Shown here: piece after piece, positions 19,001-49,498 of the stretch | How positions within the stretch are numbered: position 1 is the stretch's first letter | How the letters are laid out: each line of letters starts with the position of its first letter | From: Podospora anserina | Lineage: Eukaryota | Direction: 5' to 3' | Length of the DNA stretch: 64,000 nt | NCBI GenBank assembly: GCA_017654855.1 | Contig: CM030332.1 | Location: 5,952,001-6,016,000 of the forward strand | The notes under the pieces: generated by a model | The model's database searches: none | Told to the model about the DNA's origin: nothing | The model's input: the letters and a program-made list of their open reading frames with translations, nothing else | Position numbers and translations under genes: made by a program

Positions 19001-20082
19001 GCCAGTTAAGTGAGCAGCTTCGAAACCTCCTAGAGGAGAAAGGGAAAGTCCAACAGGAGTTTCAGAAGCTCCTGGAAGTGAAAACGGAGCTAGGGAATCA
19101 GCAAGAGTTAGAAAAGGAAAAAAGACAGCAAAATAACCAACTTCATAAATATCGACAGCAACTAGAACAATATAAAAAGAGCCAGCAGGAAGCAGAAGAA
19201 GAGCAAAGGCAGCTAAGTGACCAGCTTCAGGAATACCGACAGCAACTAGAACAATATGAGAAGAGTCAACAGGAAGCAGAAAAAAAGAAAAGGCAGTTAA
19301 GTGAGCAGCTTCGAAACCTCTTAGAGGAGAAAGGGAAAGTCCAACAGGAGTTTCAGAAGCTCTTGGAAGAGAAAATGGAGCTAGAGAAAGGGAGGGGACG
19401 GCAGAAAGCTCAGCAAGTAGTAAGGTTTAAGCAAGCGGAACAACAAGAAGAGATATCGAACTTAAACGAAAAGTTACAAAACGATAACTCAAGCGGGGAT
19501 GGGGGACAGCAGAAAGCAGAACAAGGAAAGGAGCGGGGGCAACTGAGCGGGAAACAGTCGCCGATGCAACGTAGCTCCTCTATACCCCTGGAGGGTGCAG
19601 ACAGTCAGGCCCAGGATGACAACCAAAGCGGCCAGCCCCACTCAAAACCCAGGGAAAACAGTTCAAACTTAGCAAAGAGCAATTCCCGAGCCAACGGAAA
19701 AAGAATCTTGCAGAAGCTCAAACAGCAGGCCGACGAGGCCCGGGAAAAGAACTGGCGGGTAAACCAAGAGCCTGCCCCAACGGTGCAGAGCCAACAGCCC
19801 GCCACAGAAGAACGAGATCAGCAGCAAGAGGAGGGAGAGCAGAGTGAGACGAGTGGACAAAAGCCCCCCGCTCTGTCACGAGCAAAACAAATACGTAAAG
19901 CGAGGGGTTTACTAGCTGCTTGGCGAGAACGAGCCACACAAACCAAAGATCAGAACTCTATAGAGGTTTCGCCTTCGACACTCACAGAGGAAAGCGATTC
20001 GGCCAATGCAAAAGGCGCCCCGGTCACTCTAACTGACGACGAGGGGGTTACCCCCCAAAAGAAGCGGAAAAGAACTTCCTAG
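16021..20082 (+). CDS. DUF3723-like protein (Starship-associated family) with long Q/E/K coiled-coil C-terminus, about 1320 aa
   Basis: Motifs CLRGRSR, WVVDLF, EEYSAE..DHGELYCKIRRY, EKRWWARL, EGTAPG, LVPSLSTFFEDL, FFVRRSVYLAFFG; exons 16021-16432, 16483-16838, 16888-20082 splice in frame; ends in NLS-like PQKKRKRTS. Confidence 0.85.
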
Positions 20083-21063
20083 GTAGCAATACAAGACCGC
20101 CGAGGTGCATAACTACCTTACGCTAGGTAGTGTAGCTTTGAAAGTGCCAACAGATGGCGACCCGCAGGCGGAATCCTGATGCCTTTGGCAAGAGCTTTAG
20201 ACCCAAAACTGGCAGTATCCCGGTTTAGGTGGAGCATATGCACAGATCGCGCGTTCTAGTGAACTGATGGTGCACTCACGATGACTGCGGTTCCAGACTG
20301 TCGGGACCAAGCCAGGCCGCTTCAGGATTGCGGCCCGAATCTCCTCTGTCAAGCGAGCAGTGCATACGAACTATTTAAACTGTTGGTCTATCAACAATAC
20401 GCGCTGTCTCAAATGGGGTTTAAGGTCAGAGTCAGCAATAGCAAAGAGCGGGCTGCACAAGAGAATCCATTATCCGCGCGAAGAGCCTCAAATAACAACA
20501 GCCCCTAACGCTCACCTTCGTCAGCTAGTGTCTTTTTAAGTTGAATCTTCTGAGGCTCTCTTCTATTCCCTGTTTATACATCTCGCTGTATCGATACACA
20601 CTTTATTTTATGCCTCTGTTACTGCCTGCCTAACTTCCCGACCCATTTTTATTTAACATACTTATTCCCATAACAGCCCTATAGTGGGTTCCTTACCTGC
20701 CCGAACTAGCGATAGGCCCCTGCTAGAAGGATGCTATGCCAAGGTGCACTGCATGTTCAGTGCAGGTATCCTCAACAGGGTATTTATAGATGCGTACCGC
20801 CTCTCTAAATTACAAGTCCGAGCGCCGAAAGCTCTACGGCTATTAAGGCTCAGGATCCCCACAGACCAAAAGACCTGACACCAACCTCTCGCTAGCAATG
20901 AGCATCTTCATTTACCATCAGGAATAACTCAGACCAACCTTTCACCATACGCATCCTTAGGTAGAAAGCATCGAAGCTACGTTCTTCACTAGTAGAAGAT
21001 AACCATCTTCGGGGGACACACCTTTATCGTCGTCTCCGCTAGTATCTACCGAGCTAGGAGCTA

Positions 21064-21208
21064 TAAGGTATAACGTGCGCTTGCCTAAGCCCCAGACAAA
21101 GAAACTGTCACTAACACCTTTCCAGTGCTGTGACTGTATCTCACGACCCGGAGTCAGGTATGCCAACCATGGGCCCACCATCTTTGACGAACAGTGTATA
21201 CTTATTTA
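21064..21208 (+). repeat. ~145-bp near-identical direct repeat of 39130-39274
   Basis: Same sequence taaggtataacgtgcgc...gtatacttatttat; here it lies just upstream of the C2H2 gene ATG. Confidence 0.92.
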
Positions 21209-21219
21209 TAATAATAGCG

Positions 21220-24294: not shown

Positions 24295-26022
24295 CTAGCC
24301 TGCCGGCGACATATCTTGACACCTACCAACCTTAACTACGACGAAACTGTCCCTGTCTGTAGGCGACCCGTCTATACCCTTCTCTAAATCACCTATGTCG
24401 CTTGAGGAAACCGGTGGCTGGCTCGGTCCCTCTTCGATATCATCGACATCTTCTAACCACGTTCTTCCCTCCCACTTAACCTGGATAGTCGTAGTGACTT
24501 GGATGTTGCCTTCCACTGGCTCGTTCTGAATCGTAGAGCAGGCCCTGTTTACATCTTTACCTGTGGGTCCGGCGCTTATATTTGATAACTGCTTTTGCGG
24601 TTGAAATGTGGTGATCCTGTTAGGTAGTTGGATATGTGGTGGCATAGCATTATTTCCATTCATCTCCTGGGAAATCCTGCGGCGCGCGTTGACTAGTAAG
24701 AGTCGCAGGGGTGGTAGGCTCCCGCAAAATATGGCGCAGAACTGCTCGATGGCGGACCAGATGACAATGTCAACGTTGTCCCAGGTCGCATCATACGTGG
24801 TGCTGTATTGCACGACGTACTTCATCCGTATCATCGAGGTGAAACAGGCGCTACGATAGGTTAGCCTACGTGGAGACGGTGGCGCAGCGGGAACTACGTA
24901 CAATGAGCCGATACTGAATATTGCCAACACCGCTAGTCGTTGACGGCGATCAATTCTCAGTTTCCACACCTGTGGGACTGGTAGGAGAAGAATGGCAACG
25001 TCCTCCAGGATACTGAGCGCGCCACTGCTATAGGAAATGGCAGTCGCGTCTAGGCACTTGCGACTGACGACGTAACGATCCCAGATCGAGTAGACAGGGA
25101 GACACTGCAAGGCAGTAAGAAGCGTATACAGGATGCCATGGCAGGCAAGAAAGGCGCTCAGTATGTTAACTGCATATTGTAACCTCGGTGCAGGAAAGAG
25201 GCGCCCATACACAAGCAGGATGGAAATCTTGCCAGCAACGAGGAGGATCATGTAGACCATCGACTCAGCGTAGAATAGCTGGTCTGTAAGCTCAGAAGTG
25301 GAGGGATGGGTGCGTAAAATCTCACCTTGAGAATTAGAATGCCGTTGCCAGTTGGTATTGTCCAGTAGTGCATGCCTAGGCCTAGATGTGCGCTGTAGAG
25401 ATCGATAATGGCGAGCGCAGCGAGCAAGATCTGGAAAGCCGTCAGCGCCGAATCTGAACCTTCCGGACAAGGAAGATACCAACGGCAGCGAAGATCGTTG
25501 CATAGTCATCGACCCATAGTCTCTTAGTATAAGCCATTCTAGTATACAGCCGGAGCGCGATAATCGGGAAGACTATGGAGCAACCAATGATTACCGTCCG
25601 CATTACCTCCCGGCTCCTTGATGCCTTGGGAAAATCGGCACATAATTCAGTCTCTAGTTTCGCTGCGTCTGCGAACGGTCAGAGAGTTTTTTTCACAGCG
25701 GTGATATACAATAGCCACTACTTACTTACTTGATCTGCGTATAAGCAGCTCGTCTGCGTGCACGTAGATAACTCAGATTGCAGGGTGATGTTTGTGCAGA
25801 CATAGGATGCTACGTCCGCCAGGTCGCCGCTGAAACCAACAAGAGCATCAATGATGCAGCCGTGCTGTTTATGTGGGTTAGATGACTATGAAATGCAGCA
25901 GGACCGATACCTACAGTACACGGAGGGGCCTGGGATAGGATATCTGCTGGGGAAGAATCGTGTGCGTGGGTGAGCCATGTAAGGTAGGATAGCAGACAGA
26001 GTACAAGAGGTGGAGATTGCAT
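24295..26022 (-). CDS. CFEM-domain PTH11-like membrane receptor, multi-exon
   Basis: Signal peptide, Cys-spaced CFEM-like exon (PPC..CIID..VCTNITLQSELSTCTQTSC), LRLYTR..LWVDDY, KISILLVYGRLF, EDVAILLLPVP, WSAIEQFCAIFCGSLP. Confidence 0.85.
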
Positions 26023-26413: not shown

Positions 26414-27960
26414 ATGGCCGCTGCGGATGAAATCCTGCCACCGTCCAGGAGCACCGTGTCAATCGCCAGCTCCAGGACTAGAGGATGGCAGCCTTCTTAC
26501 CATGAACTCGCGATCATGGCAGTCCTGTCTGTCCTATCCTTAATGGTCGCGCTCGATGCCTGCATCATCGTAACCTCGCTAAGTGTCAGGTCACATTACT
26601 CCCTCTTCGAGAGTTGCCATCTCACATGAAAACAGGCCATCATCAGCGACCTGCAAGGCAGCGCCACGCAAGGCTTTTGGGTCGGCACCGCCTATCTCCT
26701 AGCAAATGCCGTCACAATGCCCTTCATCGCCTCCTTAAGCGACATTTTCGGACGGCCAGTGTGTCTCGTTACTTCCGTCGGCGTCTTCGCTCTGGGGTCG
26801 CTCCTCTGTTGCTTGGCGAATGGCATGGACGTTTTGCTTGTCGGTCGATCCTTTCAGGGCATTGGAGGAGCAGGAGTCATCATCCTAAGTCTCATCATCT
26901 TCACAGACATCACCCCGCTCCGCTTCCGGCCGAAATGGTACGGCACTGTGTAAGTTGTCAATCGCACCCACCCGGCCTGTATGTTAACACTCTGGAAGGC
27001 TCGGGGCTTGGGCCCTTGGTAACTGCGCGGGTCCCGTTATCGGCGGTGCGATTGCGCAGATGACCACTTGGCGCTGGATATTCTACATCATGTTCCCTTT
27101 CTGCGGTGCCGGTCTTTTGGTCATACCCTGGCTTGTGACCCTGAAGCCACGGACAGCCTCGGTGGGTGAGAAACTCGGAAGGATTGACTGGCTAGGCAGT
27201 TTCTCGTTCGTGGTGTCGGCTACCTTATTCCTTGTTGCGGTATCCTGGGGAGGTGTCCAATACCCATGGCGTAGTGCTGGCACCCTCGTCCCGCTCTGCT
27301 TAGGCACAGCCGGGCTAGTCTGGACGTTAGTCTACGAGATTGTCTTCGCTAGCGAGCCGTTTCTGCACCTTAGTCTTTTCTGGAATGTTAGCTCGGTTGC
27401 GACCTATATTTGCGGCGCTGTCCAGGGTCTTGTGGTACGTCCGAAATGCTCCGCTATAACTCGTGTACTTACCTTCTTAGATTTACGGTCAACTTTATTA
27501 CATCCCGTTTTACTTTCTTGCGGTGAAGGGTTATGGCCCATTACACACAGGTCTAGTCCTGTTGCCCGTCATGGTTACACTTGTTCCTGGCTCCATCTTG
27601 ACCGGCATCCTGGTGACCCGTACCAACAACTACAGGCACCCTATTTGGGCTGGGTGGGCCCTGACTACCCTCGCGTCTGGTCTCACTCTCGTATGGGATT
27701 TGGATACTCCTCCTACTCTGTGGGCCACCACCCTTGTGGTTCTCGGGTTCGGCCACGGCGCCATCCTCAATGCGCAGAACTTTGCCGCACAAGCTATGTG
27801 CAAAGAGGGCGAGGAAGGGCTCGCGGCAGCTATGTATGGCTTTCTGCGGCAGTTCGGCATGGCACTAGGTGTCGGTGTTGGTGGCTCTACTTTTCAGAAC
27901 GTGATGTTACTGAAGCTTGAGCGGGAAGGGCTGTCGGCGGATATCGCGATGCAGAGCAAA
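26414..27960 (+). pseudogene. MFS drug:H+ antiporter (DHA2-like), apparently 3'-truncated
   Basis: LMVALDACII, SLSDIFGRP, GRSFQGIGGAG, WRWIFYI, RIDWLG, FLRQFGMALGVGVGG; similarity stops after ADIAMQS, before the expected last helix. Confidence 0.75.
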
Positions 27961-28410
27961 AGCTTGCTCAAGCAGAAGATGCCTTCAATAGGGAAAAATC
28001 GGCACAGTGACACACAGCAGCCAAACTTGTGATTGACAGTTTCCTCAGCTCCCGAATGTATCAGAAATGTACAAGTACATGCCGATGGGGGGCTTTCCGG
28101 ATGTGCTCCCAGTCTATGGCACACTAAAGTTGGGCACCGGAAGGGCCAGTCCTTGGTCGAAGCCAGTACCTTGCTCGGAGAAACGGGCGGCTGCGGGACG
28201 TCAGCGGGAGGTGCCTGCATCAGACTAGCAAGAACCAGTTCTTGAGCCTATGGTGGTAAATGGCCGCTGTAATGCCAGAATGGCGAGTTTTGTATTTAAA
28301 ATAGCTATACGCTGGCAGTTGTACTGTCGAGATTAAAAGAATAATGATCTGGTTCAGATTCCGATCTCAACTCCCTACGCTGCTCGTGTATAAGGAACAT
28401 TATAGCAGGA

Positions 28411-28584
28411 GAAAAGTGTCACCGCCGTGGTAAGCGAGAATTTTCCCTACCTTGTTAGTCGTCGCATTTAATCTCACCTACCCCGGCCGTCGAATCCTGC
28501 CCACCCCCGCTTGTAACTTCGAATCTCGCTATCCTACCAGGGCGACCTCGAATCTCGTTTATACGTTTGTAGCTTCGAATCTCT
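28411..28584. repeat. Inverted repeat of 43622-43796 containing a ~28-bp-spaced TCGAATCT array
   Basis: Reverse-complement match; differences are TpG>TpA in this copy. Confidence 0.92.
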
Positions 28585-30798
28585 TACCTTGCTTATAGTT
28601 AAGGTCGCTAATCAAGAAGTTAAGGTCCGCTACGATATGGTTAACCGCGCTTGGTTAAGATCTCTCCCTCGATTTATTTCACCACTTTAACCATATGACC
28701 GGGACTGTTGTATGCCCGAGCAGAACGTATCCGTGCCGGAGATGATCCTATCAACGTCCTCAGTGGCATCGACAGCGGCACCAAAAGCCAGAGTTCTCCC
28801 GGTGCTGCTGCTTAGCGCAAATTATGACCATTGCTGCCACAGCAGCCTGGTAGTCGAAGTGGGCCAGCTCGCGCAGGGCTTGTATTCGAATCTGTAGTCG
28901 GCCAGTCAGAAGACAAACAGCGTGGGACGTTACAACCACGCCAAATTCATATGAACCACAATTGACATCGCGTTGCATATCCTCCGTTGAACCTGGGGTC
29001 CAATATCCGTGAAAATGTGCAGGGTGCAGAAAAAGAAAGATAAGCTGGAAACCTCGTTGGCAGTGCCTGGCCCCTAGATTTTAGAGGTACCTGTGCATCG
29101 CTCAGCTGGAGGTGTTGGCTTGGCGTCTTCAGCCCCCCAGAATGGGAGCCTTCTGACAGGTAGCACTAAAGTAGCGGCGCCATTCAACGACAACGTATCT
29201 GCCTCTGCCCGTGGATCCAGAATTCCAAGTAAAACCGGAAGCAGGCGAGTTTCTCACAAGGCGAGTCATAGAATACATCGGACGAAGAGGGCTGCGGGAA
29301 GTAGGGCCAGGTTGGAGATGGAGAATTGAGGGTAGGTGAGCGGTGAGTGGAGCAATGCCCTCGCCCTGTCTGAAGCTTCTCGGCCCATGGGCGCTAGCCG
29401 GGATGGGTCGTCCGATATTAGGGAACAAGCGTAGCTCACAACTTCCATGACAGGCAGGTGTGGTCATAGCAGCACATGTACAGTAACCACCAGAGAAGGA
29501 TTCCGTAACCGTCGAGATGTAGTGATGTTGGCGTCGTTGAGAACCTCCATGGGCACTCCTCCCTACACCTACCCCTGTCATGAACCCCTCCACCCCTCCA
29601 ACCCATGATTCCCTACTCCACCCCGCCTTTAATCCACACCTCCCTTGTCCATATCACGAACGTTATCCTATCCTACACCTGCGAAGTGGACTTCGATCAA
29701 AGAACTGTTGAGGAACAAGTCATACCCATCGTTTTAGACAGAATACCAAAGCAACAAGCGGTTCGGTCCCATTCCAAGTAGCCGCTCATTTCCCGAGGCG
29801 CCGCTTTCATGTTGAACCCCTGACGAAAGACATCAAAATTAAAATTGACAGCGAAGAATTGAAGCTGTTGGAGCAGCCTACCTATCTAGCTGCCCACCTA
29901 GCTATATAAAGCCCAAGATATGGGACTTCCTGGCCGGTCTGGGTTCTCTCCATATTGGAAGTGAGATGTCTACCTAATAAGAGCTGAGCACACGAAACGA
30001 CCCAACCTGTCTATGTCTTGTCTTTCTAATACGAAGACATTACTCACGACTTTGCCGCTTCGCCCACCACCCTCCGACACATCGTCTCAACTTCCCTTGT
30101 TCTTGTTGTCAGGCACTTCAGGTACCCAAATGCAATCTGTTTCCCGTCCTGTTTCGGAGTTTTAATCATACCGTGCAGGTTGCCGGCAGTGATTCCTGGA
30201 TGCCGGTCACTGGTTGCCAGTAGATCTCCCCTCTCCACCGGTAGTGCTCCAGACAACAAGCGCAAAATACCACCCGATTTTGCTGCCTTCCAACTCGCTG
30301 GGACGGCTTCCATTAGCGCGCTACCGGCTCCACAGCTGCACAAACGCGCAGGGCTACCCACCGCATCACTCAGCGGGCATTCAAGAGTCCCCGCCGCCGC
30401 CGCCGCCGCCTTCTTCCGCTATTGCCTCCCTTTGCCGTCACTGAAAGTCGGTCACTCGGTCTAACCTGGAAGTTCCCACCCTGCAGACGGAGCCAGGCAG
30501 GTAAAAGCACGCGCAGGTCAGCTTGGTCGCCGCCCCCACCAATTCCTCCGGTCCACCTACCGCCCCGCAACAGCCTACCTACTCTCTGTCTGTCTCTTCT
30601 TCATCAAGACATCCCACACTCTCTCTCTCGAAGCAGCCTGGAACTGCCTGAACACTAAGTGCCACGACCCCATATTCTTTGACCAGTCGAATGCTTGTTA
30701 GCCTCCTGCTCACAAGCCACCAACAAGACCTGCTGTCATCGTTTCTGTCTGGCTACGCCCAAAGGTAACACAAGTCTTATAATTCAGCACATCACAGC

Positions 30799-33700
30799 AT
30801 GGCCAACTCCGAGGAAACGCCACCGCCTTCCAAAATCGAGGTTGAGGTGGTGACCGAGAACCTCGAGACCCCCGAGCTGGATGATCGTTCATACCGTGTC
30901 ATCCGTCTGCCCAACGGCTTGGAGGCTCTTCTGGTTCACGACCCCACCACTGACAAGGCCGCGGCCGCGGTTGATGTCAACGTTGGGAGCCACAGTGACG
31001 AGGATGATATGCCAGGAATGGCCCATGCCGTTGAACATGTAAGCTTGCTATTACCGCTCCGCACACTCAGGCTGCAGCCGCTAACTTTGATTGCAGCTTC
31101 TGTTCATGGGGACCAAGAAATTCCCTGTCGAGAATGCCTATCATCAGTACATTTCAAACCATTCTGGGCTCACCAATGCCTTCACGGCGACAACCTCAAC
31201 CAACTACCACTTTGAGGTCTCTGCCAAGCCCAGCAACGATGAAGAGCCATCTGCCACCAATCCCTCACCACTGCTGGGAGCGCTGGATCGCTTTGCCCAG
31301 TTCTTCATCGAGCCACTGTTCTTGGAGAACACTCTGGATCGTGAACTGAGGGCCGTTGATTCAGAAAACAAGAAGAATCTCCAGAGTGACAACTGGCGTC
31401 TGCACCAACTCAAAAAGACTCTCTCCAACCCGAAACACCCCCACCACCACTTCTCTACCGGCAACCTTGAGACGCTCAAGACCATCCCCGAGGCAAAGGG
31501 TATCAACGTGCGAGACAAGTTTATTGAGTTGTATGAGAAACATTATTCTGCCAACCGCATGAAGCTTTGCGTCTTGGGAAGGGAGCCCCTGGATGTTTTG
31601 CAGGCTTGGGTGGCCGAGTATTTCTCTCCCATCAAGAACAAGAATCTGCCACGCAATAGGTGGGAGGATGAGGTTCCGTTCACAAAGGATCACTTGGGAG
31701 TCCAAATCTTCGCCAAGCCTGTGATGGATACTAGAGAAATTACTCTGAGCTTCCCCTTTATGGAGCAAGAGAATCTTTACGAGACGCAGCCTGGTGGATA
31801 CATTAGCCATCTCATCGGCCATGAAGGCCCTGGCAGCATTATGTCCTATGTCAAGTCCAAGGGATGGGCCAACGGTCTGGGCGCCAGGCCAAGTAACATT
31901 TGCCCCGGGTCTCCGGACCTGTTCGACATCGGGATCACCTTGACAGAGGAGGGACTGAAAAACTACAAGGAGATCGTGAAGGTCGTGTTTGAGTACATCG
32001 CCCTTCTGCGAGAGACGGAGCCGCAGCAGTGGATCTTTGATGAGCAGAAAGGCATGGCAGATGTCAATTTCAGGTTCATAGAGAAGTCTCGAGCTTATCG
32101 GTTTGCAAGTTCCGTCAGCCAAAGGATGCAAAAGCCAATCCCCCGCGAGCATCTGGTGTCTGGGTATTCCAAGCTTCGCAGATTCGACCCGAAGTTGATC
32201 AAGCAGGCTTTGGGCTGGCTACGACCCGACAACTTCTTTCTCGTTGTCACCTCACGGAATCCCCCTGTTACGTTGGATAAAAAGGAGAAATGGTATGGGA
32301 CGGAGTACACCGTCCAACCAATTCCGGAGACTCTGATGAAGGAGGTCCAGGCGGCAGCTACCAGCACACCTGACAACCGAAAGCGAAGCTTCATCTCCCC
32401 ACAAGAACCAGTTCATCCCAACAAAGCTAGACGTGGAGAAGAAGGAAGTCAAAGAGCCTGCCATCGCCCCGCGGATTATCCGCAACGACTCTATGGTCCG
32501 GACCTGGTACAAGAAGGACGATACGTTCTGGGTCCCGAAAGCAAGTATAATGGTTAGCTGCCGGACACCAATCACCTCACTGGCGTCTATGCGGGCAGCA
32601 GGCCGTCTTTTCACAGATTCGATCAAGGACGCGCTCGAGGAATACTCATATGATGCCGAACTTGCTGGTGTTAAATATACTGTGATCTGCGAGGAGCGGG
32701 GAATGTATATTGAGGTCTCTGGCTACAACGACAAGCTTTCGGTGCTCCTAGAACAGGTTCTGGTCACCATGCGCGACCTCGACATCCGCGATGATCGATT
32801 CGCCATCATCAAGGAACGCACGATCCGGTCATACCGAAACTGGGAGCTTTCAGCACCATGGACACAGATTGGTGGATACATGAGCTGGCTGACGACGACA
32901 GACCACTACAACACCATCCTGGATATCGCAGAGGAGCTTCCTGCCGTGACAGCTGATGCGGTGCGATCTTTCAAGAGGGAATTCTTGGCCCAGATGCACA
33001 TGGAAGTCTTGGTTCACGGCAACTTTTACAAGGAGGACGCACTGAAGCTGACCGACATGATCGAAAAGACGCTCAAGCCGCGGCCATTCCCTCCATCTCA
33101 GTGGCGTTCACCTCGCGGGCTGGTGTTTTCTCCAGGGTCAAACTACGTCTGGAAGAAAACGCTCAAGGACCCCGCGAACGTGAACCACTCGATCCACTAC
33201 ATGCTCTACACAGGTGCCAAGATTGATCGTCCTCAGAGGGCAAGGACAGCTCTTTTGGACCAGATCATGCATGAGCCTTGTTTCGACCAGCTTCGTACCA
33301 AGGAACAGCTCGGATATATCGTTTACTGTGGCTCTTGGAGCAATGTGACAACGTTTGGTGTCTACTTCATCATTCAAAGTGAGAAGACGGCCCCCTATCT
33401 TGAGACCCGGATCGAAAAGTTCCTGGAGGACATGGGGAAGAGACTCGAGCATATGAGTGAGGAGGATTTCGAGAAGAACAAGCGAAGTTTGATTGAAAGG
33501 ACGCTTGAGAAGGCCAAGTCGCTGGAGGGAGAGAGCAACCGGCACTGGCAGGCCATTGAGTCTGAATACTATATGTTCAACAACCGTAAGTCTAACCTGA
33601 TTATTCCCCTTGGGCCCAAGGCAAAACTGACCCGTATTTCGTGTTATAGGACAGTTGATGGTGGAGAATCTGAAGCCACTGACAAAGGCTGATATGATTG

Positions 33701-34168
33701 AGTTTTTCAACCACTACATCAACCCTTCGTCCCCTTCGCGGGCGAAGGTTGCAGCTTATCTGGAGGCCCAGGCCAAGAGCGATGTGACAACGAAGCAAAT
33801 TACGGATCTCATCAAGACGCTCGATCTCGATGAAAGTACCGCTGCCCAGGCTGCCACTGACCTGCAGTCTCGCCTGAGTGCGGCTGGCCATGACGAGGAA
33901 AAGGAGGTCGAAGGCCTTGTCGACTACCTCCAAGGCCTCGGGGTACCAGACGGCAAGGTAAAGGCTGCGTCTGACGTGGAGAAAGACTACACTCTGAGCA
34001 TGGACCCGGCAGCGGAGTTGTCAGGACGCAGAGCCACCATCATCCAATGGGACGACACCCACCCTCATCAAGGATGTGCGAGACTTCAAGGCACTCCATG
34101 CCACCAGCAGGGCTCCCTATCCAGAGAAGGATCTTGCGGAGTATTATGACCTGGATGCAAAGCTTTAG
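30799..34168 (+). CDS. STE23: M16A metalloprotease (insulysin / a-factor processing enzyme), frameshifted as assembled
   Basis: DDRSYRVIRLPNGLEALLVHD, HAVEH inverted zinc motif, LLFMGTKKFP, HLIGHEGPGS, FDQLRTKEQLGYIV; frame breaks near 32385-32400 and ~33950-34045. Confidence 0.88.
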
Positions 34169-35236
34169 ACATTTCACTTGGAACTATGCGGATCGGGGTA
34201 GAGGGGACTCTAGACTACTGAGCGGAAAACAGACTTATACCCAAAAAGCATTATATTGTCACCATTGTTGGTCATGCAGCGCATAGATGAACTAATCAAA
34301 ACTTTCTTGCTGTTTTATTTCATTGCCTGATGTTCTCCTGAATCTCCGGAACGTTCCTGTGCCACAGCTCAAGATAGATGAAGATCTCACTTGGGCTTTC
34401 CCATATACTACTAGCCCCTAATATCTGTCAGAGAACCAACTGCCAAACGGTTCCTGGCACGGACCAGGCACGGACCAGCTAGGCACTGTGTGTGAACTTC
34501 CATGGCACGGCCACAGGGCAGCGGCCCACTCGCAATGGCAGAAAAGCGATTTTTGTGAAGCCCGTGCCCCTCCAAAAGTCAAAGTGAAGTGCTTGGTAGC
34601 CGCCCGCGTTGCACTTGGGGTATCCCTTTCATCCAACTGCGTCGTCTGACGCTAACAGAGGGTCGAGATTGGGGCTGGTCAACGAAGGAGTAAGAAGCGG
34701 GAATATTTATTATCGCTGCACCTCGCTCCGAAAGCGTCTCCACTATGTTACACTGCCCGTGTTGGCGTCCGCCCTTACCGAGCTAGAACATGCTTGACTA
34801 CACTGGCGGCAGCAAATCTGCCGTTCTTCATAGGGCGACGAAAAGAGGCTGTGACTGTGGTTCGCTAGTGAGGTGGGTAAAGTGGAGAGTCGTTGGCGAA
34901 GTAAGCAAAAATCGAGGCCACTGGCGAGGTGGGTGAAAATCGGAGTCAGTAGCGAGGTAAGTGAAAATCGAGGCCGCTGGCGTAGATGTAGACCACAGGG
35001 CGTGAATTAAAGATACTTCGTGTGACACTTGTCTGTACACAGTGCTGATTCTATTGCGGGCTGCAACAGACGAGGACCGAACAGCTGCATCCAAGATCCA
35101 TCCCCCACAAACTTTGGTCTTGACTGCGCTCCAGAAATGGCTCTCGGAGCCAAACAGACCCACCAGAAAGGCAGCATTCGATAAGCAAATGAACTGTGTT
35201 CCGCAGTAACAACAGCCTAGAAGCGACCCGCATATA

Positions 35237-36905
35237 GGGTGGATGACCAGGAAATGGCCCACCCACGGATATGGACCACCACCCCCACACCAGCCACACA
35301 ACCTTAATGAGATTACCCCTGAATGCTTACACTCCCCACAACAAGACCAATATTGGGTCAATTTCTATGGAATTTATACCAAAATGTAGCTCAATCACTG
35401 TCAGAGTCAGACATTTTGTCTGCTTCCCTCTTACGCCGGGTTTGAACCCGATAACGTGTGCTACGCCGCACAGGCTCGGCTGGCTCCGGCTGCTCCACAT
35501 CCTCCTTAGGCACCACTTCTTCCTCCACCACCCTCCCTTCAATGCGGCCCTCTTCCAGCTCACAGAGCCTCACAAACTTGGAATTCGAGTCTTCTCTATT
35601 CAACTTGCGCCTTTTTCTTGCTTCCTGGGCCTTTTGGGCGTTTTGTTGGTGCCTTGCCGCATCAGCTTTGTGGATGGATACCTCAGATCTCAGTGTGAGT
35701 ATAGTACTGGTGAGAGTCCTTGCCGCAAGCCGTTTTCCGGCCGGCGTATGGTTCTTGAGTAGGTCCTTGACCTTCTTGGCCACCTGGGAATCCCCCACGG
35801 TATGGAAAGTAGGTGTTTTTGAAGAGAGATCCAACGGCACCACAGGGACTACCACCTGGCTTGAAGAGAGCGGTTTGCGCCTACGTATGGGCCATAATCC
35901 TGTCCCACGCCAGCCGCCGGCAATATTCTCTTTCCTGAAGCCCTGCTTGCGGCAAGGTCATACAGCCGGACCAAGTCAACCTTGCCGTCAGGCGTACAGT
36001 TGGTGAGGGCGTCGTTTACAGCCACAAGCCTCTTATACGCCTTCTTCACACTGGAAAAGCAGCCAATATCAAGGGGTTGAAGGACGTGAGAGCAGTGGGG
36101 GGGCAGGAAAAGAAGGTAAATATTACTCCTGTAGCACCGGATCATAAAGTCGTCAGTGGTATGTGAGCCATGACCATCACAAATAAGAAGACGTGGTTCT
36201 GATGGGTCCTTTGGTTGAGTCCTTGGGATAAAGACCTCTTCAAGCCATCCAACGGCCAGGTCGTTACTGGTCCAACCGTTCGATAATACGGCCACATACC
36301 AGTCCTTATCGAATTGGTCCTTGAACCATTGCTTTTGAAGGTCTTGGCCTTTGAAGATTACCCTGGGGGGAAGGACTCTCCCATCCTGGGAGATACACTC
36401 CAGCATAGTAGTCCAGGTCCTTTTTCCATTCTGTTTAACGTATACAGACTTTTTATCCCTCATTGAAGACCCCACCAAGCCGTTCTCTCCCTGACCTTCC
36501 ATTATTCCTACTTCATCATGGTTATACCTGTTCTTAGGCTTGATCCAGTCAACGGTAGAATAAAGGTTAAAGAACTTGTTGATATTCTTCGGGGTAGCTT
36601 CGTTAACTCTAGCGTAATCAATCTTCTTTCCACCTTCGTTTTGATACTGGGATGACGGCCAATGAAGCGGGTTACCCAGTGCTTCCCAATGGAGTAGATA
36701 TCGGCTTGTTCAGCCAGTATACTGGCCGCCAGAGCTCTTACGTTGGCGTGGGTGGGAGCGTAGCCAAGGCTTTCCTGACGAAGGATCGATTGAACGATAA
36801 GGTCTTCCTGGCCCTGAGTAAGCCGCTGTTGATTTTCATGGGCCTGTTTGCAAACCTGGGTTCCTAAGATGCGGTGCCTCAGTGTAGAACGTGGAACCCC
36901 GTGCT
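35237..36905 (-). mobile_element. Pogo/Fot1-type DNA transposon, 5'-truncated and frameshifted
   Basis: HTH (HGVPRSTLRHR, IGKHWVTRFIGRHP) and DDE (WTTMLECIS, LLICDGHGSH, PPHCSHVLQPLDIGCF); candidate TIR 35237-35280 after TA, with internal repeat ggaaatggcccacc/ggatatggaccacc. Confidence 0.88.
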
Positions 36906-37776
36906 TGAGGTTGGGTAGAAAGATTGCAATTTGCCAGCCCAAGAGCAAACCGCGTTCAAGTTCATGGCAAAGGGGGCCATGTTTGGCAAAGGCAAAAATA
37001 ACAGCGAGCACAAGCCCTGCGCCTAGGAAGACGCTGAGTGTAGCGAGCCAGATATGCTTTCTTGTTCTCCACAACTGCAGGTCGTACCGATAAGCAGTTC
37101 CGATGTATAAACCATGGCAGGTCCAGGTTACGATAAATGCGGCGATGGCCCCATGAAGCTGGGCATCAGTGACAAGGGACTGCATCTTTGCAGCTAGGAG
37201 AGAGGGGCAATAAATACGGCAATAGGTGCAAAAGGCAATAACTAAGGCAAAAAATAAGGCAACCGAGGTGGCTTGCAGAAATTAAAAGTGCACTTTTCAG
37301 GGAGACAGCATGGTGCGCATCCTAGGCTTATATCCTTGGTGTCGTTGTGTGGACTGGGCAGGCGGATGGACGGATCACCCAGCAGCACCGCCCCCTGCTC
37401 AATCAAAAGCAGCTGGCTCACCCGATATTAATGAGACTTGAGAAAACAGGGAACTTTTCATGGTTGAATTAGAATCGAATCGCAGTCTCAGATCGTACTC
37501 CAACGCTAAAGCGGGGAGGGGTGCCCAGGAGCACCGGAGCGTGGGGGGCAAGGGCATTTTCACTCGGTCGATAGGTAAGCAGGGGGTGAGAGCAAGGAGT
37601 TAAAATCACTAGCCAGCTCGGAAGCTTCCCCAGATCGCGGGCTTGGTAAATGTTCTGTTGATGTTGCATAGAAGGCGGAGGGAGGGGAGAGGGAGGGGGG
37701 TGTGAAAATAGAACGACCGTAGAGGATTAACTCGTCATTTGCCTTCCAAGATTTATCACGAACATCTCTTAATTCG
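36906..37776 (-). repeat. Inverted paralogous copy of 57269-58098 (upstream region and exon 1 of the 7-TM gene), fused to the transposase
   Basis: DNA and peptide match MQSLVTDAQLHG...IAIFLPNL. Confidence 0.92.
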
Positions 37777-39575
37777 AAATATTCGAGAGAAGAGTAGATA
37801 TAACTTGATTTTAAGCTACATCTTCGCCAGGATCTAGCCGGAAATATTCAATCTGCTTCTCAAAATTTGCCTTCAACATACGCCGGAGCGCCTCAAGATC
37901 TCTCAGCTTATAGGTATGCTGTGGGTGGAATAACTCCGAGCGCGGCTTCCGGATTCCTATGGAAGGGAGCTTATCCTTTGGATGGGGCTGGGGCCGTTAG
38001 CGACTTAGGGTGGATGCTATTTTCTATCTAGATTCCGTAAGAGAAACCAAAAAAAATTATAGACGAATCACGATCTAGCCTTTTCCTACCTTAGATAGAT
38101 AGGTGAGAAATCTCGGCAAATTGCCCATAGCGGTATCGAAATTTAATCGTTCTAGAAACCGCAAGACATAGCTTCTATATTATTAAGCGCAGCTTAGCTG
38201 GTAGCCACGGAAGAGTTCGAACCTAGCATAACTTCTTCTCCCTCGCTTTAAATTCTTATAACAATGCCCCGGCTAGAGAGTCGTTCTCTCCATTATCAGG
38301 ACGCCTCTTGCCTTGCTGTCTCTAAATATGAAGTATGTTTCAAGATAATAGGCGGCCTGTTAGATGTTATGACGGTGCGGATGTACCTGATACAGGAAGA
38401 CCATGCGGCCACGCTGCCCATATAACCCTCTCCTCGACCTCTGCAATCCTCTCCCTTCGCTTTTGCTCCGCCCGTCCCCTCCGCCACTTTCCCTCCGCCA
38501 CTTTCCCTCCACCTAACACATCTCTTCTATATTCTATAGAAAGAGAAGATGCCCTTCGTCTTATTAATAATTTACCTCCTCATAAGCTTATCACCGTCGC
38601 TTGACTTAAGGTACCACATCTTCTCTTGATACCAGAATAGACCACCACGCTTACATTCGCAGATTTGAAAATACGGGACTTTATCCCTCCCGCCGAGAGC
38701 CTTCTAAGATTTGATGGTAGAGCTTTTGAGATAAATAGGGGGGTTTTTACAGTGGAGCTCCTGAACAGGGATTTCTTAGTTGAGCTTTCCAATAAGGGCT
38801 TTTACAAAAGGCTCATAATAAGGATTTTAATAGTGGAGTTCTTTGCATCCGATTGGCTATCACTTATACCATAAAACGCCAGGATTAGGTGCCCAGTCGA
38901 GAGAGGGTTGAGAGAGCCCACACAGTCTATCGCCTGCCTGTCTGGCACCTCGCTGGCCGTTGATCGCTTTAGAGTGGGTTAGGCCCATCCGTACATATCC
39001 TCCATGGGCTTCCCACCCTGACGCTCTCTTCTCTCCACAATCGGCAAATCGGTCGACCTGGACGCGTGATTGCCTCGCTCTCTCTCTTTCTTGTTCATTT
39101 ACATATTGGTTCTTGTTTCTTTTAGGACATAAGGTATAACGTGCGCTTGCCTAAGCCCTAGACAAAGAAACTGTCACTAACACCTTTCCAGTGCTGTGAC
39201 TGTATCTCACGACCCGGAGTCAGGTATGCCAACCATGGGCCCACCATCTTTGACGAACAGTGTATACTTATTTATTACGCTACTTCCCCTTCTTTCACCC
39301 CCCATAGAAAAAGAAAACACAAGCATCAGCAGGCTTGGAGCCAAACAGACCCACCAGAAAGGCAGCCTGATAGGCTCTCGGGCAGGCCCCTGATTTTTAG
39401 CGTGCCATTCCCCCAGAAACAGGGGTTTCAGAGGTGGACTTCTATCTTAACCGGGCATTTTGACGTGTGGGGCTGCGTACGGCGAGGAATTCGCAAAGAA
39501 GGCTGTCGAGACCGGTACCGCAGCGGGGCTAACTCCTTCAATTTCTTAACCCCAATCTACGTGTTAAATGCTCAA

Positions 39576-39788
39576 CGCATCGCCCCCATCTCATCCATGT
39601 CTACCTTGCACCGTCAAAGTCCCTGTTCTCGAGCTCCACTTTTAGAGCCCCCCGTCAACAAACCAGCCGGAAACCCCTCTCGCACCAGGCCCGATACGCT
39701 GGAGGGAGGGATCGAGAGCTTTGGAAGCGCTTGGTCATGACAGCTGGCGCTCTTCGTTCTGCCTGAACATGGTCTCGGCATCAATAGC
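39576..39788 (+). repeat. ~200-bp dispersed repeat, three copies (also 47619-47841 inverted and 56481-56687 direct)
   Basis: All three copies begin at CGCATCGCCCC with unrelated outer flanks. Confidence 0.92.
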
Positions 39789-41731: not shown

Positions 41732-42571
41732 ATGGAAGACGATGAAGATAACAAGATAATTATCAAGGTATATACTTTAACTTTTAAAGGCTAATAGTTA
41801 CTATTATTAATCCTAATTTTATAGGATATACAGTTTGGCTTCCGACGTTTTCGAGCACCTGCAAAACGAATCTACGGGAATCGGAATGTCTTTCTCTTAG
41901 ATGTCCCGCCGAATCCAATTGCTAGCTGGCTATCATTTTGGATACCGCAGCTCGTCCGCTCCTGGCTACAGCGATTGCTACCAGAGTGGTTCTTGCCGAC
42001 AACTGTCATTCTAAAGGAGCGAAACCCGAACAAGGCTGATAGCTACGAAAACGAAATCGACACATACCTGCATCTTCGATCCCTCCAGGGCACCCACATC
42101 CCGCGTTTGTTTGGTGAAGTAGCCGTCAGCGACCCCCACGCGCAGAGATACCAGATCAGCAAGCGACCCACTCCTGCCATCCTCCTGGAAAACGTCGAAG
42201 GAGTATCGCTACACAATCTCCCAATTAAAGAGCTAGGGAATGATCAGCTTCTCAATCAACTCCAGTACATATATGACCTGCTTACGAAAAACGGGGTTCT
42301 TCATGGCGATCCAAGGCTCCACAATTTTCTACGTGTTGATCAGAGGGTCGTTGCTATCGACTTTGAGCTTTCCGAGCCTCTTGTCGGTGATATAACGAAT
42401 GAGGAAGAATTGGAGACCTTGAAGGGTGATATTAAGAGACGGACTGGGGAGGGAGCTCCCATCAGGCAGCCTCCCTGCCAAACCTCGACGCTCCCTCAAC
42501 GCCGCCCGCTCGCACTAACCACGCCCGCGCCACTTTGTGGAGGGAGACCGGCAGGGTGTGCAAAGGATTGA
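41732..42571 (+). CDS. Small atypical protein kinase (Kdo/RIO-like fold), 2 exons
   Basis: VILKE..ENEIDTYLHL..LQGTHIPRLFG..ILLENVEG..HGDPRLHNFL..IDFE; intron 41768-41824 in frame. Confidence 0.78.
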
Positions 42572-43067: not shown

Positions 43068-43495
43068 CACAGATCCCTGTAACTTATATAAACACCAACA
43101 GAACATTGGGAGCCAGGTATGACAGGCTGCGAGTAAGGCGCGCGGATGGGCACCTGTCCTGCATTCTTCGCCCCCTGGGCGCTGGCCGTTCCCCGGCTGC
43201 AGCCAATAAGTGGCTCAAAGCGCACCTTTGGGCCCTCTAGCACAGGCTTCTAAATTTTGCACTTCCTCAAGAAGACCGGGCGCCCGGTTCCTGCCATTGA
43301 ATATCTTCGAACGCGTCGAACGACCCATAACCGGCCCCCTATGTTATTCTTATTACCGAATTCCGTGTCACTTGATCTCGGCATCTATTTCCCCGCCGCA
43401 GTTAATTAATCCGCTTCAAGCAGATGCCCCGCCAACTACCCCGCCGAGATTTGCTTTTACATATAAATTTCCATTAAGAATACTCGCCAGCAAAC
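43068..43495. repeat. Left arm of a ~430-500 bp inverted repeat, right arm 46100-46600
   Basis: Reverse-complement match with small indels; the right arm carries many TpG>TpA changes. Confidence 0.93.
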
Positions 43496-44188
43496 GGGCT
43501 GTTGTGCCAATATAGCGGCTCGATATGCTTCGGAGCAGTTAAGCAAAATGCCTCCAGAGTCGATGTAGCGTTGTCGGCAATATCGAGCGGCCGCTTTAGA
43601 TGCAGCCGGTGTGATTGAGAGAGAGATTCGAAGCCACAAACGTATAAACGAGATTCGAGGTCGCCCTGGCAGGATAGCGAGATTCGAAGTCACAAGCGGG
43701 GGTGGGCAGGATTCGACGGCCGGGGTAGGTGAGATTAAATGCGACGACTAACAAGGTAGGGAAAATTCTCGCTTACCACGGCGGTGACACTTTTCCCGGT
43801 TCAATGCAGAGCCCTTCCATTCAGGCAGCAGGACGTGGGCAGCTTTTTTCAATTGGCTGACATGGGTTGTATGCGAGGCAGCCGGCTGCGAGAAGATAGC
43901 TGCAGATTTGATGGCTGTCCTCGCTCCAGCCCCGTCACCTAGTTACACCTCGCCTAGTCCCTCCGAGTTCTTCCGTATATGTTGGTCGTGGGACAGATAC
44001 GCTGTCATAAAATGTGTGACCGGACGACGTGATAGCCAATCGGATGCAAGAACTCCGCCATCAAAATCCTTACTAAAGAGCGCCAAAATCACTGTTCAAG
44101 AACTCCTGCCTTAAATCTATCGAAAGTCTGTACAAGAGCGTCACCGCCAAAAAAATCTTTGCTTAAGAGCTCGTCTTTTTTCAGTGCC

Positions 44189-45782
44189 ATGAACCCAGAC
44201 GAGAAAGCTGCGAAAATCCTTGCGGATGCACTTGCGCGTTACCCAAACAATGTGTCGCTTTCGAAAAAAGATTTCAGTCGGGTCTACAAATTCCTTGAAA
44301 TGGTATTTATTCCGGGTGTCCTCGGAGATACCACAAAGAGACGTTGCTTCCAACAGCTGAAGCATGAAATACTCCCTGCCGTCGGGGTCCTCCTTAAATC
44401 GAAGGATATCGCCGACAACGCTACATCGACTCTAGAGGCATTTTGCTTAACTGCTCCGAAGCATATCGAGCCGCTATGTTGGCACAACAGCCCAAAGCTC
44501 TGGCAAGCGTGTCTGGGGACTGCGATAAGTGACCCAGCATACTTGACATTCCGGAAAGGTAAGCCTCCACAGTTTGTTAAGTTGTATAAACTAACAATAG
44601 CCTAGTTGCTGTTGATAAGGTCCGACCGCCCTTGGTTCAAGCACTGCCCAGTTCCAATTCTACCCAACCTATTACAATTAGTTCGCTGCTACAAGGAGGG
44701 GCTGCGTCTCAACAAGAGGTGGATACAAGTGTTGCCTCCCTGGGCAACTCTGCACAGACTGCTGTTTCGCCATGGACAATGACTTGCTCTCCATGCAGCA
44801 CGACGGTGCGCCTTCAGTGCGCCTGCAAGCAAACGACTGAGGGTAAACCTTTAGGTTATAATTTATCTTACTTCCACCTAACTAACAACCGGAACCTCAG
44901 GACCGTCTTCCTCGACAAACAGCATTGCGCCGCTGCCAGCAAATCCCACCGCGTCCAGCCCCACGAACACCCCGCTGCTACCCACATTAATCCACCCCAC
45001 CGCGCCTCCCATTGCTACGCCGACAGTGCCACCAAGGGACACAAGCGGGAACAAACCTGTTTCTCTTTTCACGGACTCTGGTGCTATAGCTGGGCCATTA
45101 CAACAAAGGAAACGGCGGAGAGGAGAGGGTAGGCCTGCCTTTGTGCGATTCTTCGCCATGAGCTGACACAGATCCTATCTCAGATACACCCGCGACAGAC
45201 CCTGATAAGCCAAACCTCGTTCCGATCCCCAAATCTCAGGCACACAGCATCGAATCTTCTCTAGCGAATCCAGTCCAGTCGAGCGAGGAGCCTACGTGGC
45301 CTTGGCCAAATAAAAGCCAATTCAACGCTGAGAAGCTTTGCGAATATTTGACGCAGCATATACCCGAAGAGATCGAGTTCACCAGGCACCATCAGCAATA
45401 CATCTCATCTATCTTTTCAGTTGGCATCCAGTTCCAGATCACGTCGGCTTGGTGCGGAGCAAGATCCATTGCATTTAGATCTAGATTCTTTGTTCCTCGG
45501 TCGGTGTTATTGAAAAGTATTTTAGACCACCTACAAGAGGGGGGGAGGCCAGAGAATTATGGTCTCGAGGCCAAACTAGCTCCGAACTCGACGACTTTTA
45601 GAACGTACTGGTGGCACTTTGATAAGACAGGAGACGGAGTTGTCTGGCCAAATGTATTTGGGGACCTTTTGCTAAGATGGCAGCGACCAGTGCATGTTGC
45701 TACTATAATTCGACAGCTTAATTCTGATGAACGTAAAAGACGGTTGGTTGTTCCGACGCAGGTAAAAACGTATCAGAAGTAA
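44189..45782 (+). CDS. Multi-exon hypothetical gene, possibly disrupted
   Basis: ORF pieces 44159-44605 and 45348-45782, with GTAAGC..CTAAC..TAG intron signals between; no recognised domain. Confidence 0.4.
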
Positions 45783-46070
45783 TATATAAATATCTGCCAT
45801 CGTGCGGTTTATTCTTGCCCGTCGATAACCAAACTCGGTCGATGATAATGATACCGGAGGCCCCATCGAAGTCGACGACTACTGCGACATACTCCTGGTC
45901 GGAGCTGTCTATACAAAACTCAAGCTGCGACTGCTGTTCCACGGTCTAAAATGATCAGTACTCGTAAATTTGCATTATAGTGAAGCACGTACAAGCTCCT
46001 TGCCTAATTCTTTTCTCACTGCCTCCAAAATATCGTCATCACTCCAACCTGTAACGTTTATCTCACTCAT
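45718..46070 (-). CDS. Small hypothetical protein, paralogue of 58714-59047
   Basis: WSDDDILEAVRKELG then IDSSDQEYVAVVVDFDGASG...GRYLYITS, versus WTHDEILK..RKYTG then IDTDERNYVAAVVDIDGPDG...GKYLYLTS. Confidence 0.55.
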
Positions 46071-46607
46071 CGTGACAGGACCCAATTCGATTTGCGGAGG
46101 TTTGCTGGCGAGTATTCTCAATGTAAATTTATATGTAAAAGCAAAGATTTGCGTGAGGCATTATGTTTGCAAGGTGACTGTTTGCCCAATTTAGGCCCGA
46201 CGAAATTCTCTCGCAACTTCTCTCGGCGGGGTAGTTGGCGGGGCATCTGCTTGAAGCGGATTAATTAACTGCGGCGGGGAAATAGATGCCGAGATCAAGT
46301 GACACGGAATTCGGTAATAAGAATCAGATTTAGTTTTAGATAACATAGGGGGCCGGTTATGGGTCGTTCGACGCGTTCGAAGATATTCAATGGCAGGAAC
46401 CGGGCGCCCGGTCTTCTTAAGGAAGTGCAAAATTTAGAAGCCTATGCTAGAGGGCCCAAAGGTACGCTTTGAGCCACTTATTAGCTGCAGCCGGCGCCCA
46501 AAATGCAGGACAGGTGACCATCCGCGCGCCTTACTCGCAGCCTGTCATACCTAGCTCCCAATATTCTATTAGTGTTTATATAAGTTACAGGGATCTATAG
46601 TTAGCAA

Positions 46608-47208
46608 CCCTCTTTCCCATAACCTTAAACGCGGTTTACTCTTAGGCTAGGAAATTGCAATCTTTCTACCTAACCTCATTGTCCAGGTACTCCTCCGCTT
46701 TTCGATTTATTGAACCTCCGTTAACCTTTACTTAGTTAATAATAAGGTCGACAGTTACCAGCCTAGTTTTTAAAGCTCGTTCCGTCGAAGATAAACTAAA
46801 CGGCAACATTATCCTTGGCCTGGTCGTAACGGTTGAAGCTATCCTATTGGGTCTCGGGAGCTGGAAGATTCTCGAGGGAATAACCATTGAGTTCGCCTGG
46901 CTCGCGGCTCTTCCCTTCTATCTCTGCCACTTCCTCTCCGCCACTATAACGTTGCGGGGCATAGCACGGGCTGCGATGACTCCAAGGTGTTATTCATGGA
47001 TAGGAGTGCAGGCGGCCGCGATTTTGCTTACCGTTGTCATTCCATTTGTGGTTCCGGTAGAGTATCAACATTTGTCTCACTGCTTCACCTGCATAATTGT
47101 AGCTGGTGAACTTGGTGGCTGGAAGGCAGATGACTGGAGCGATGATGAGATCTTGAAAGAGGTCAGGAAGCATACTGGGCAGGGTAGGTTCTGCTTTTTC
47201 CTCCCAAA
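46608..47208 (+). pseudogene. 3' part of the 7-TM gene (copy of 58028-58793) with two internal deletions
   Basis: Near-identical DNA; deletion junctions at the AAGG and TGAC microhomologies near 47126-47134. Confidence 0.88.
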
Positions 47209-48893: not shown

Positions 48894-49498
48894 AGGCTAG
48901 GTGGACCGCAGAAATACGCCAGCATGTCACCGTGTAGAATAGATCAGATACACTCGGTAACCCTTATAAGGATCCTTATCGTGCCAGACCGCGTAGTTGA
49001 GCGTTTGCCGCTAAGTACCCAAATATCACTACCTGTCCAACACCAATGACGGTTGCCTCCTCGTACATGTCAGCAAACTCTATCGCCCATGTACCATCAC
49101 CGGTACAAGGTCGAGAACATTGCGATACTCCTCCTTGGGACAGAGCGCTATTCGGTTATTATGTGCTAACCAGCACAGCATATGTAGAGCCTCCATACGT
49201 TCCTTCTCGTGTTGAAGCAGCATTTAAAATGACCCTGCAGAGACGTCCACCATGATAGCTTACACAATTTAAGTTTAATCGGTTATGCGGGACAAAAAGC
49301 TGCACGCAGATTGCAGAACCCAATACGGCTAAGCTTAAATCGGAGGGTATCATGGAGCGCAAATGCGTATTGCTAGAGATAGTTAAGGAGATCGCAGATT
49401 GTGCCACTTGCGGGCAGAGCTCCCCGGTTCGGCGTCTGATCAGTGGTGAATTTGGAGTTTGGATGGTGTTTTGTGGAGATATGGCGGAGAAACTGTCA

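Follow-up and report, generated by a model that had tools for sequence, protein, structure and literature searches.

Filled and empty copies of a repeat around an insulysin gene in the Podospora anserina Spok block: candidate before and after states of a cargo acquisition

Introduction

How do giant transposons of the Starship class come by the host genes that they carry? The acquisition of such genes is still poorly described. For Enterprise, the Spok block of Podospora anserina, the original paper infers 'many individual events' and, in the parts of it considered here, gives no junctions (PMC8092012); the passages considered of a 2024 paper on cargo acquisition likewise contain no junction-level mechanism. 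The question is raised in concrete form by a stretch of 64,000 nucleotides of P. anserina DNA (GenBank assembly GCA_017654855.1, contig CM030332.1, positions 5,952,001 to 6,016,000 of the forward strand), referred to below as the window, in whose own numbering all positions are given. Here, a whole insulysin/STE23-like housekeeping protease gene is embedded in a repeat whose inverted paralogue in the same window lacks it. A landing site kept both filled and empty in one element would let the mechanism be read directly and would serve as a template for finding other acquisitions in the block.

A first-pass annotation of the window had drawn attention to this arrangement and left two explanations side by side, capture of a host gene into element DNA and later deletion from a duplicated copy. 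Of these two, capture is favoured by the evidence from the left junction.

Results

A repeat with an interrupted and an uninterrupted copy

BLASTN with positions 1-1500 as query against the whole window, rerun at word size 7, revealed two inverted paralogues whose similarity is far beyond chance, copy A (1-890) and copy B (29075-35123). Copy B is composed of a segment L (29075-29358, plus strand), which forms the left flank of the inserted block, and a segment R (34636-35123, plus strand), which contains two short arms, a 102-bp core and a minisatellite. The two segments are separated by 5277 bp in copy B, as had been described, and by AAT alone in copy A (486-484, GCAATGC-AAT-ACTGCG). This trinucleotide, read on the minus strand, is present in A only and creates a GCAAT-GCAAT tandem; the junction sequences thus bear out the earlier remark that the filler repeats the adjacent gcaat. 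The description of A as a short copy that joins both segments with only three filler bases holds for the AAT junction itself, but it overlooked a 126-bp extra piece, a 102-bp inversion and the truncation of the copy at the window edge.

On the R side of the junction, the first 22 bp of R (462-483 in A, minus strand; 34636-34657 in B) are identical at 22 of 22 positions at word size 7 and include the left 10-bp arm GACGCTAACA. The adjoining core (359-461 in A; 34658-34759 in B) starts 22 bp from the junction and is flipped between the copies: 349-471 matches 34648-34769 in direct orientation (97.6%, E 2e-54), whereas its neighbours match in inverted orientation. An imperfect 10-bp inverted repeat, GACGCTAACA / TGTTGGCGTC, bounds the core and is the same in A and B (34648-34657 and 34760-34769 in B). 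The distal part of R (1-358 in A, minus strand; 34760-35123 in B) aligns at 96.7% over 365 columns (E 2e-174), with indels of 7 bp and 1 bp and with the only four true substitutions between A and B, all of them transitions. The alignment stops where copy A reaches base 1 of the window, and the repeat may extend past what the window shows.

On the L side, the last 34 bp of L (487-520 in A, minus strand; 29325-29358 in B) are identical at all 34 positions. They are followed, 34 bp from the junction, by the 126-bp piece found only in A (521-646). It contains a 21-bp motif, GTGGAGCTCCTGAACAGGGAT, that has four sites in the window at up to three mismatches, compared with 0.01 expected (549-569, 38752-38772, 39619-39639 and 56524-56544, the last two on the minus strand); two of these sites belong to a repeat family of about 210 bp (39576-39788, 47619-47844 and 56478-56687). 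Beyond this piece lies the main part of L (647-890 in A, minus strand; 29075-29325 in B), which aligns at 97.2% (E 4e-119) with all 244 aligned bases identical and indels of 6 bp and 1 bp. Apart from the 126-bp piece and the inversion, the indels between A and B thus measure 6, 1, 7, 1 and 1 bp.

Three open reading frames (ORFs) across L and R (1-543 on the plus strand, 29132-29653 and 34831-35364 on the minus strand) matched no Pfam family and their translations look non-coding; L and R were treated as non-coding. R carries a 28-bp minisatellite (34870-34982) with a 69-80% relative at 49498-49618, and the 55 bp just past R (35128-35182) recur at 49707-49761, so that R belongs to repeated element DNA. 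Rearranged paralogues were also seen in another repeat pair of the window, 3324-3921 / 58810-59348, in which 3324-3531 corresponds to 59141-59348 in direct and 3643-3921 to 59092-58810 in inverted orientation. It thus seems that paralogous copies in the element have repeatedly come to differ by small local inversions.

The inserted block carries a whole insulysin gene

The sequence between L and R of copy B, a block of 5277 bp on the plus strand (29359-34635), is unique in the window: comparison of the window with itself gave no BLAST pair inside it. The block starts with CCTCG, ends with ATCCA and sits between C and A. Its ends form no terminal inverted repeat (TIR), their inverted similarity score of 7 being reached by 471 of 500 shuffles (8.3±1.5), and no target-site duplication (TSD), the direct score of 8 being reached by 121 of 500 shuffles (6.9±1.3); the flanking k-mers differ for k=2-8. 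The shuffled and k-mer comparisons thereby agree with the first-pass annotation, which had seen neither TSD nor TIR. A poly(A) tract is missing as well, with no A-run at 34576-34635.

Contained in the block are a whole gene of the M16 family, 1440 bp upstream and 467 bp downstream of it. That the entire STE23 gene and its upstream region lie between the repeat segments was established by tblastn and by reading the frames. With the 1082-aa protein PODANS_7_6640 (P0001) as query, tblastn found one locus only in the window, 30799-34168 on the plus strand, with coding sequences at 30799-31038, 31097-33585 and 33650-34168. Both introns (31039-31096, 58 nt; 33586-33649, 64 nt) are retained and are bounded by GT and AG. 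The HxxEH zinc motif, which defines the M16A family, is intact as HAVEH at the end of exon 1 (31024-31038). The Pfam architecture, Peptidase_M16, M16_C (twice), M16_M and PqqF-like_C_4, is collinear with P0001, and protein identity to Pa_7_6640 is 98-99%. Compared with the protein of strain S, we counted eight substitutions (R12K, M99I, F225L, G344R, M408I, E607K, E646D and D865H) and one additional Thr codon.

The reading frame is interrupted. Relative to P0001 it is broken five times: one base is lost after 32383, another in the C-run 32397-32400 and two near 33978; the A-run 33982-33984 has gained a base, and a further one is lost near 34023. These events were deduced from protein comparison, without donor DNA, and predict truncation after about codon 509. 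The captured copy now looks like a pseudogene, in agreement with the published remark that many genes of the block are pseudogenes or fragments (PMC8092012, as far as covered here). All five breaks fall in short runs, and sequencing error is a possible source of them; the DUF3723, MFS and pogo transposase genes of the window are likewise split into overlapping ORFs. More generally, single-base indels in short runs are unusually common compared with substitutions, whether one looks at the insulysin copy, at the A/B alignment or at the comparison with the protein P0121 described below (for instance at 32383, 32397-32400, 34023 and 29495). They could stem from genuine decay or from long-read errors that persist in duplicated sequence. 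Four of the eight amino-acid changes correspond to G>A on the coding strand, too few to call repeat-induced point mutation (RIP); no strong RIP is reported for the Spok block in the text considered (PMC8092012).

A core copy of the gene exists on chromosome 7

A search with the 488-aa exon 31091-32554, in which 8000 candidates were scored and 2768 proteins passed E<=0.001, gave PODANS_7_6640 of P. anserina S mat+ as best match (97%); the next-best, among the best 120 of the 2768, was a Thermothelomyces protein at 77%. Pa_7_6640 is a core gene; in strain S, which reportedly lacks a Spok block, it lies on chromosome 7. The insulysin gene of the window is thus, as judged from sequence, a captured second copy, and a core copy exists at least for the species. 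The published gene table of the Spok block, in the part used here, names the block copy 'Pa_7_6640_homolog' and lists a separate 'Pa_7_6640_Fragment' (00053) elsewhere in the block (PMC8092012). The first-pass annotation had noted that its proposal would fall if this were the only STE23 and stood in its conserved neighbourhood; instead, the core gene is found in the Spok-block-free strain S, and the neighbours in the window follow the order of Spok-block cargo. Because both introns, 1440 bp of upstream and 467 bp of downstream sequence are kept and poly(A) is absent, the capture took place at the DNA level. Our reading of the block 29359-34635 is that its DNA was copied directly from the core locus of Pa_7_6640.

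The left breakpoint coincides with the end of the repeat

As the window alone cannot decide between insertion and deletion, non-coding ORFs were used as probes. One of them, the minus-strand ORF 29132-29653, spans the junction between L and the block, its codon 99 corresponding to 29359-29357. It had a single match, the 155-aa protein P0121 (one protein at E<=0.01 from 51 candidates, in a set of 5.8 billion proteins). By tblastn against the window, residues 1-54 of P0121 correspond to 29657-29496 (50/54 identical) and residues 55-100 to another frame ending at 29357 (46/46 identical). P0121 and the window represent the same DNA with a 1-bp indel between the two frames. The last 55 residues (101-155) of P0121 had no match in any frame of the window. 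Back-reading of the codons indicates that the P0121 locus shares C at 29358 and possibly G at 29357 and differs at 29356 and 29355. Homology to P0121 ends within 1-2 nt of 29358, where the homology between A and B ends.

Copy B thus looks chimeric, with P0121-like DNA joined to an L-R stretch of the A type and an overlap of 1-2 nt. Since the P0121 locus, which is independent of the window, is collinear with the left end of the block and stops matching at the repeat junction, insertion into B is favoured over deletion from A, and we consider it probable that the gene was inserted into copy B. We infer that P0121 derives from the core locus on chromosome 7: the published fragment copy of the gene keeps only the middle domain and is unlikely to retain DNA 1.2-1.4 kb upstream of the start codon.

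The window follows the gene order of a published Spok block

All 62 stop-to-stop ORFs of at least 130 aa in the window were compared with Pfam. In order along the window, domains were assigned to Chromo (6213-6656, minus strand), DUF3723 (15964-20079, plus; three overlapping ORFs with profile positions 4-85, 83-174 and 179-508), Fung_rhodopsin (24298-25572, minus), MFS/TRI12 (26988-28029, plus), the M16 domains of the insulysin gene (30769-33689, plus), pogo-type HTH_Tnp_Tc5 and DDE_1 (35852-37281, minus), an APH/kinase-like domain (41825-42568, plus), a weak Peptidase_C48 (50223-50918, minus) and ABC_tran (63002-63418, minus). A further 143 of the 202 ORFs of 75-129 aa, the other 59 lying between 16000 and 37300, gave no Pfam family. 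The fungal rhodopsin domain is found in the SC1 protein 4 family, which is named in the following comparison.

Supplementary Table S2 of Vogan et al. 2021 (PMC8092012) contains hand-annotated genes of one P. anserina Spok block. The part of it considered here runs from 00122 (CD_CSD), 00130 (DUF3723), 00137 ('satratoxin SC1 cluster protein 4') and 00138 (Pa_5_3190 homolog, MFS) over 00142 ('Pa_7_6640_homolog, insulysin'; Psk-9.00142), 00145 (Scoty) and 00146 (Chekof, kinase-like) to 00147 (Peptidase_C48) and 00155 (MdlB). In the window, eight ORFs with Pfam domains are arranged in the same order as rows 00122, 00130, 00137, 00138, 00142, 00146, 00147 and 00155, and the pogo-type transposon of the window has no counterpart among these rows. 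As the ORF order follows the published table, we conclude from sequence comparison that the whole window lies in the interior of a Spok block, i.e. of Enterprise.

Enterprise has the tyrosine recombinase Kirc (DUF3435) as its first ORF and ends named bufo and schoutedenella with a RGGTAG TSD, and Spok4 is located far upstream of the matched rows (PMC8092012, in the parts considered). DUF3435 was absent from the 62 ORFs and from the 143 shorter ones, as expected if the window is internal; the element ends probably lie outside it. Spok blocks of different strains are described as largely overlapping in content and the block as having grown via many separate acquisitions from all chromosomes (same source). 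The DUF3723 gene, which corresponds to the row 'DUF3723 + PTZ00121' of the table in the part considered, has a long Glu/Lys/Gln-rich tail composed of 84- and 117-bp tandem repeats (18605-19316, AT skew 0.53).

Discussion

A possible course of events

Break repair of element DNA is the route to which the left junction and the block ends point most clearly, and no transposase would be needed. Initially, the element would have held a short non-coding stretch L-AAT-R, of which an inverted duplicate arose at a distance of about 28 kb, so that copies A and B came into being. A later break between L and R in copy B might have been repaired by copying about 5.3 kb, with the promoter region, both introns and the 3' flank, from the core Pa_7_6640 locus on chromosome 7. 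As the donor survives, the DNA would have been copied rather than cut out. At the left junction, such a repair would have relied on microhomology of 1-2 nt, and it would have lost the three target bases AAT without generating a TSD. It could have proceeded either by a template switch, primed by microhomology, to chromosome 7 and back again or by end joining with a copied fragment. Close to the junction, at distances of 34 and 22 bp, lie the 126-bp difference and the 102-bp inversion; these would then be scars of the same untidy repair with several switches, and we infer that they are probably tied to that event. The sequence of these steps, the pathway and the state of the right junction are reconstructed here from the two copies and the left breakpoint. 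That one element preserves the states before and after a cargo acquisition by microhomology-primed copying at a break is, in our judgement, a proposition on which the evidence is evenly poised.

Copied DNA is known to insert at double-strand breaks via end joining or microhomology-primed template switching, processes described as filler DNA capture, microhomology-mediated break-induced replication (MMBIR) and fork stalling and template switching (FoSTeS). The locus resembles such insertions in the lack of TSD and TIR, in 1-2 nt of microhomology on the left, in the loss of three target bases, in the retention of the donor and in the small rearrangements clustered at the junction. Compared with classical filler DNA, 5.3 kb is long, and the pathway would here be deduced from the left junction.

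Alternative explanations

A deletion is the most serious competitor. In this scenario, an L-gene-R segment of at least 6 kb was duplicated in inverted orientation within the block, and A subsequently lost 5277 bp by end joining with a templated 3-bp filler, along with a local inversion and a 126-bp insertion. Several observations speak for it. The AAT in A extends GC to a second GCAAT and looks like typical templated filler, and the 126-bp piece bears a dispersed-repeat motif, as captured filler might. Segmental duplications and gene fragments are frequent in the element: Table S2, as far as considered, lists many homolog/fragment pairs including the second 'Pa_7_6640_Fragment' (PMC8092012), so that internal duplication followed by deletion is common there. 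Other points count against the proposed course of events itself. At the right junction, the ORF 34422-34646 on the plus strand had no candidate in the set of 5.8 billion proteins. The ORF 34421-34651 on the minus strand had three matches among 1.84 billion representatives (627-2111 aa, with 5-11 short stretches at 37-40% identity), which were judged from the table alone to be low-complexity noise. The origin of P0121 at the chromosome 7 locus is itself an indirect deduction. A weaker point is that rough divergences do not support a capture younger than the A/B duplication: A and B differ by 4 substitutions in about 777 bp and the upstream part of the block from P0121 by 4 changed residues in 100 codons. 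Dating the capture relative to the A/B duplication by such divergence is uninformative, as the core copy is under selection and the comparison depends on the lineage of P0121. With respect to the Spok-block context, the Pkinase row 00123 of the table was seen neither among the 62 ORFs of at least 130 aa nor among the 143 of 202 ORFs of 75-129 aa. Against a deletion, its left end would need to lie no more than 1-2 nt from the limit of the P0121 match. A random endpoint in the roughly 300 bp shared would coincide with that limit about once in a hundred cases. We therefore regard deletion from A as unlikely, yet as an explanation to be reckoned with, and insertion into B as the better account of the left junction.

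The remaining explanations are far less probable. Pack-MULEs, other Pack-type TIR elements and Helitrons capture genes, and like them the locus shows a whole host gene with introns duplicated into mobile DNA. The window is rich in remnants of transposons, among them pogo/Fot DDE_1 sequences at four places. However, the TIR and TSD expected of a Pack-type element are missing at the block ends. Helitrons have 5'-TC and 3'-CTRR ends and insert between A and T; the block, beginning with CC and ending with CCA between C and A, does not fit. A retrocopy is contradicted by the retained introns (31039-31096 and 33586-33649) and the missing poly(A), and transposon-mediated capture in any of these forms is very improbable. 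No more credible is an assembly artefact, in which the core gene was misplaced into the repeat or the junctions are chimeric. It could draw on the frequency of 1-bp indels (five frame breaks, three single-base indels between A and B and one relative to P0121) and on the fact that some published Podospora assemblies are nanopore-based. An independent published annotation nevertheless places a Pa_7_6640 homolog at this position of the gene order in the rows considered (PMC8092012), eight substitutions and an extra codon set the copy apart from the protein of strain S, and the flanking repeats of less than 500 bp should be too short to mislead a long-read assembly. Least probable of all is that a related species has no other STE23 and that the gene is its orthologue in a rearranged neighbourhood. 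The 98-99% identity to Pa_7_6640 would also be expected of a sister-species orthologue, but the neighbours follow the cargo order of the Spok block in the published rows and not that of a core neighbourhood, and the frame is broken five times.

Relation to the published Spok block

The closest parallel is the accumulation of cargo in Enterprise itself (PMC8092012, in the parts considered), which concerns an element of the same type and very probably even this locus. DUF3723, the MFS Pa_5_3190 homolog, the 'Pa_7_6640_homolog insulysin', Scoty and Chekof are shared with the published table. The block is said there to have taken up non-repetitive genome sequence in many separate events and to contain many pseudogenes and fragments. 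Published annotation already records the capture of the insulysin gene by the Spok block, and the general conclusion is likewise in print; the junction-level detail contributed here is a modest addition to a known phenomenon. The parts of the text considered and the supplement apart from file 1 describe no junctions, no empty landing-site paralogue and no repair mechanism. A full-text literature search found no paper naming Pa_7_6640 and none pairing Podospora with insulysin. Internal duplication within the Spok block has also been reported (2019 work as cited in section 7 of PMC8092012); A and B themselves form an inverted duplication of this kind, and the rows considered of Table S2 are rich in homolog/fragment pairs. 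On the evidence of the left junction, internal duplication explains the A/B pair, but not the presence and absence of the gene. If insertion by break repair is correct, entry of a host gene would be visible at the nucleotide level, marked by an overlap of 1-2 nt, the loss of 3 bp and, as scars, a local inversion and a deletion, and cargo would be gained by ordinary error-prone break repair rather than by the element's recombinase or nested transposons.

Other repeats and features of the window

Comparison of the window with itself showed a mosaic of 42 short repeat pairs (33-782 bp, 67-100% identity); Rfam families and tRNA genes were absent from the window. To the right of R lies a degraded pogo/Fot-type transposon (35394-37677, minus strand) with HTH_Tnp_Tc5 and DDE_1 domains in overlapping ORFs, outside the A/B repeat as far as the window shows. 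No convincing TIR was found for it. Copies were detected by self-BLAST at 57340-58098 and 46608-46678, and at least four degraded copies or fragments of this type can be distinguished in total (35394-37677 on the minus strand, 46608-47209, 57340-58794 and 3324-4436), 87-95% alike and all with broken frames.

Inverted repeats of about 500 bp (43071-43584 / 46100-46596, 88-96%) surround about 2.5 kb with ORFs at 44036-45779 that match no Pfam family, and an internal copy of one arm is present at 44405-44493; 43071-46596 may be an unclassified element with long TIRs. A 610-aa open frame on the minus strand (50863-52692), also outside any Pfam family, adjoins the weak Peptidase_C48 match at 50223-50918 and may, by its position, correspond to the 'PpBr36_10652 homolog' of the published table in the part considered. 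Finally, two repeat pairs, 21063-21209 / 39129-39275 (147 bp) and 28411-28584 / 43795-43622 (174 bp), are 98-99% identical with sharp ends and are younger than most other repeats of the window.

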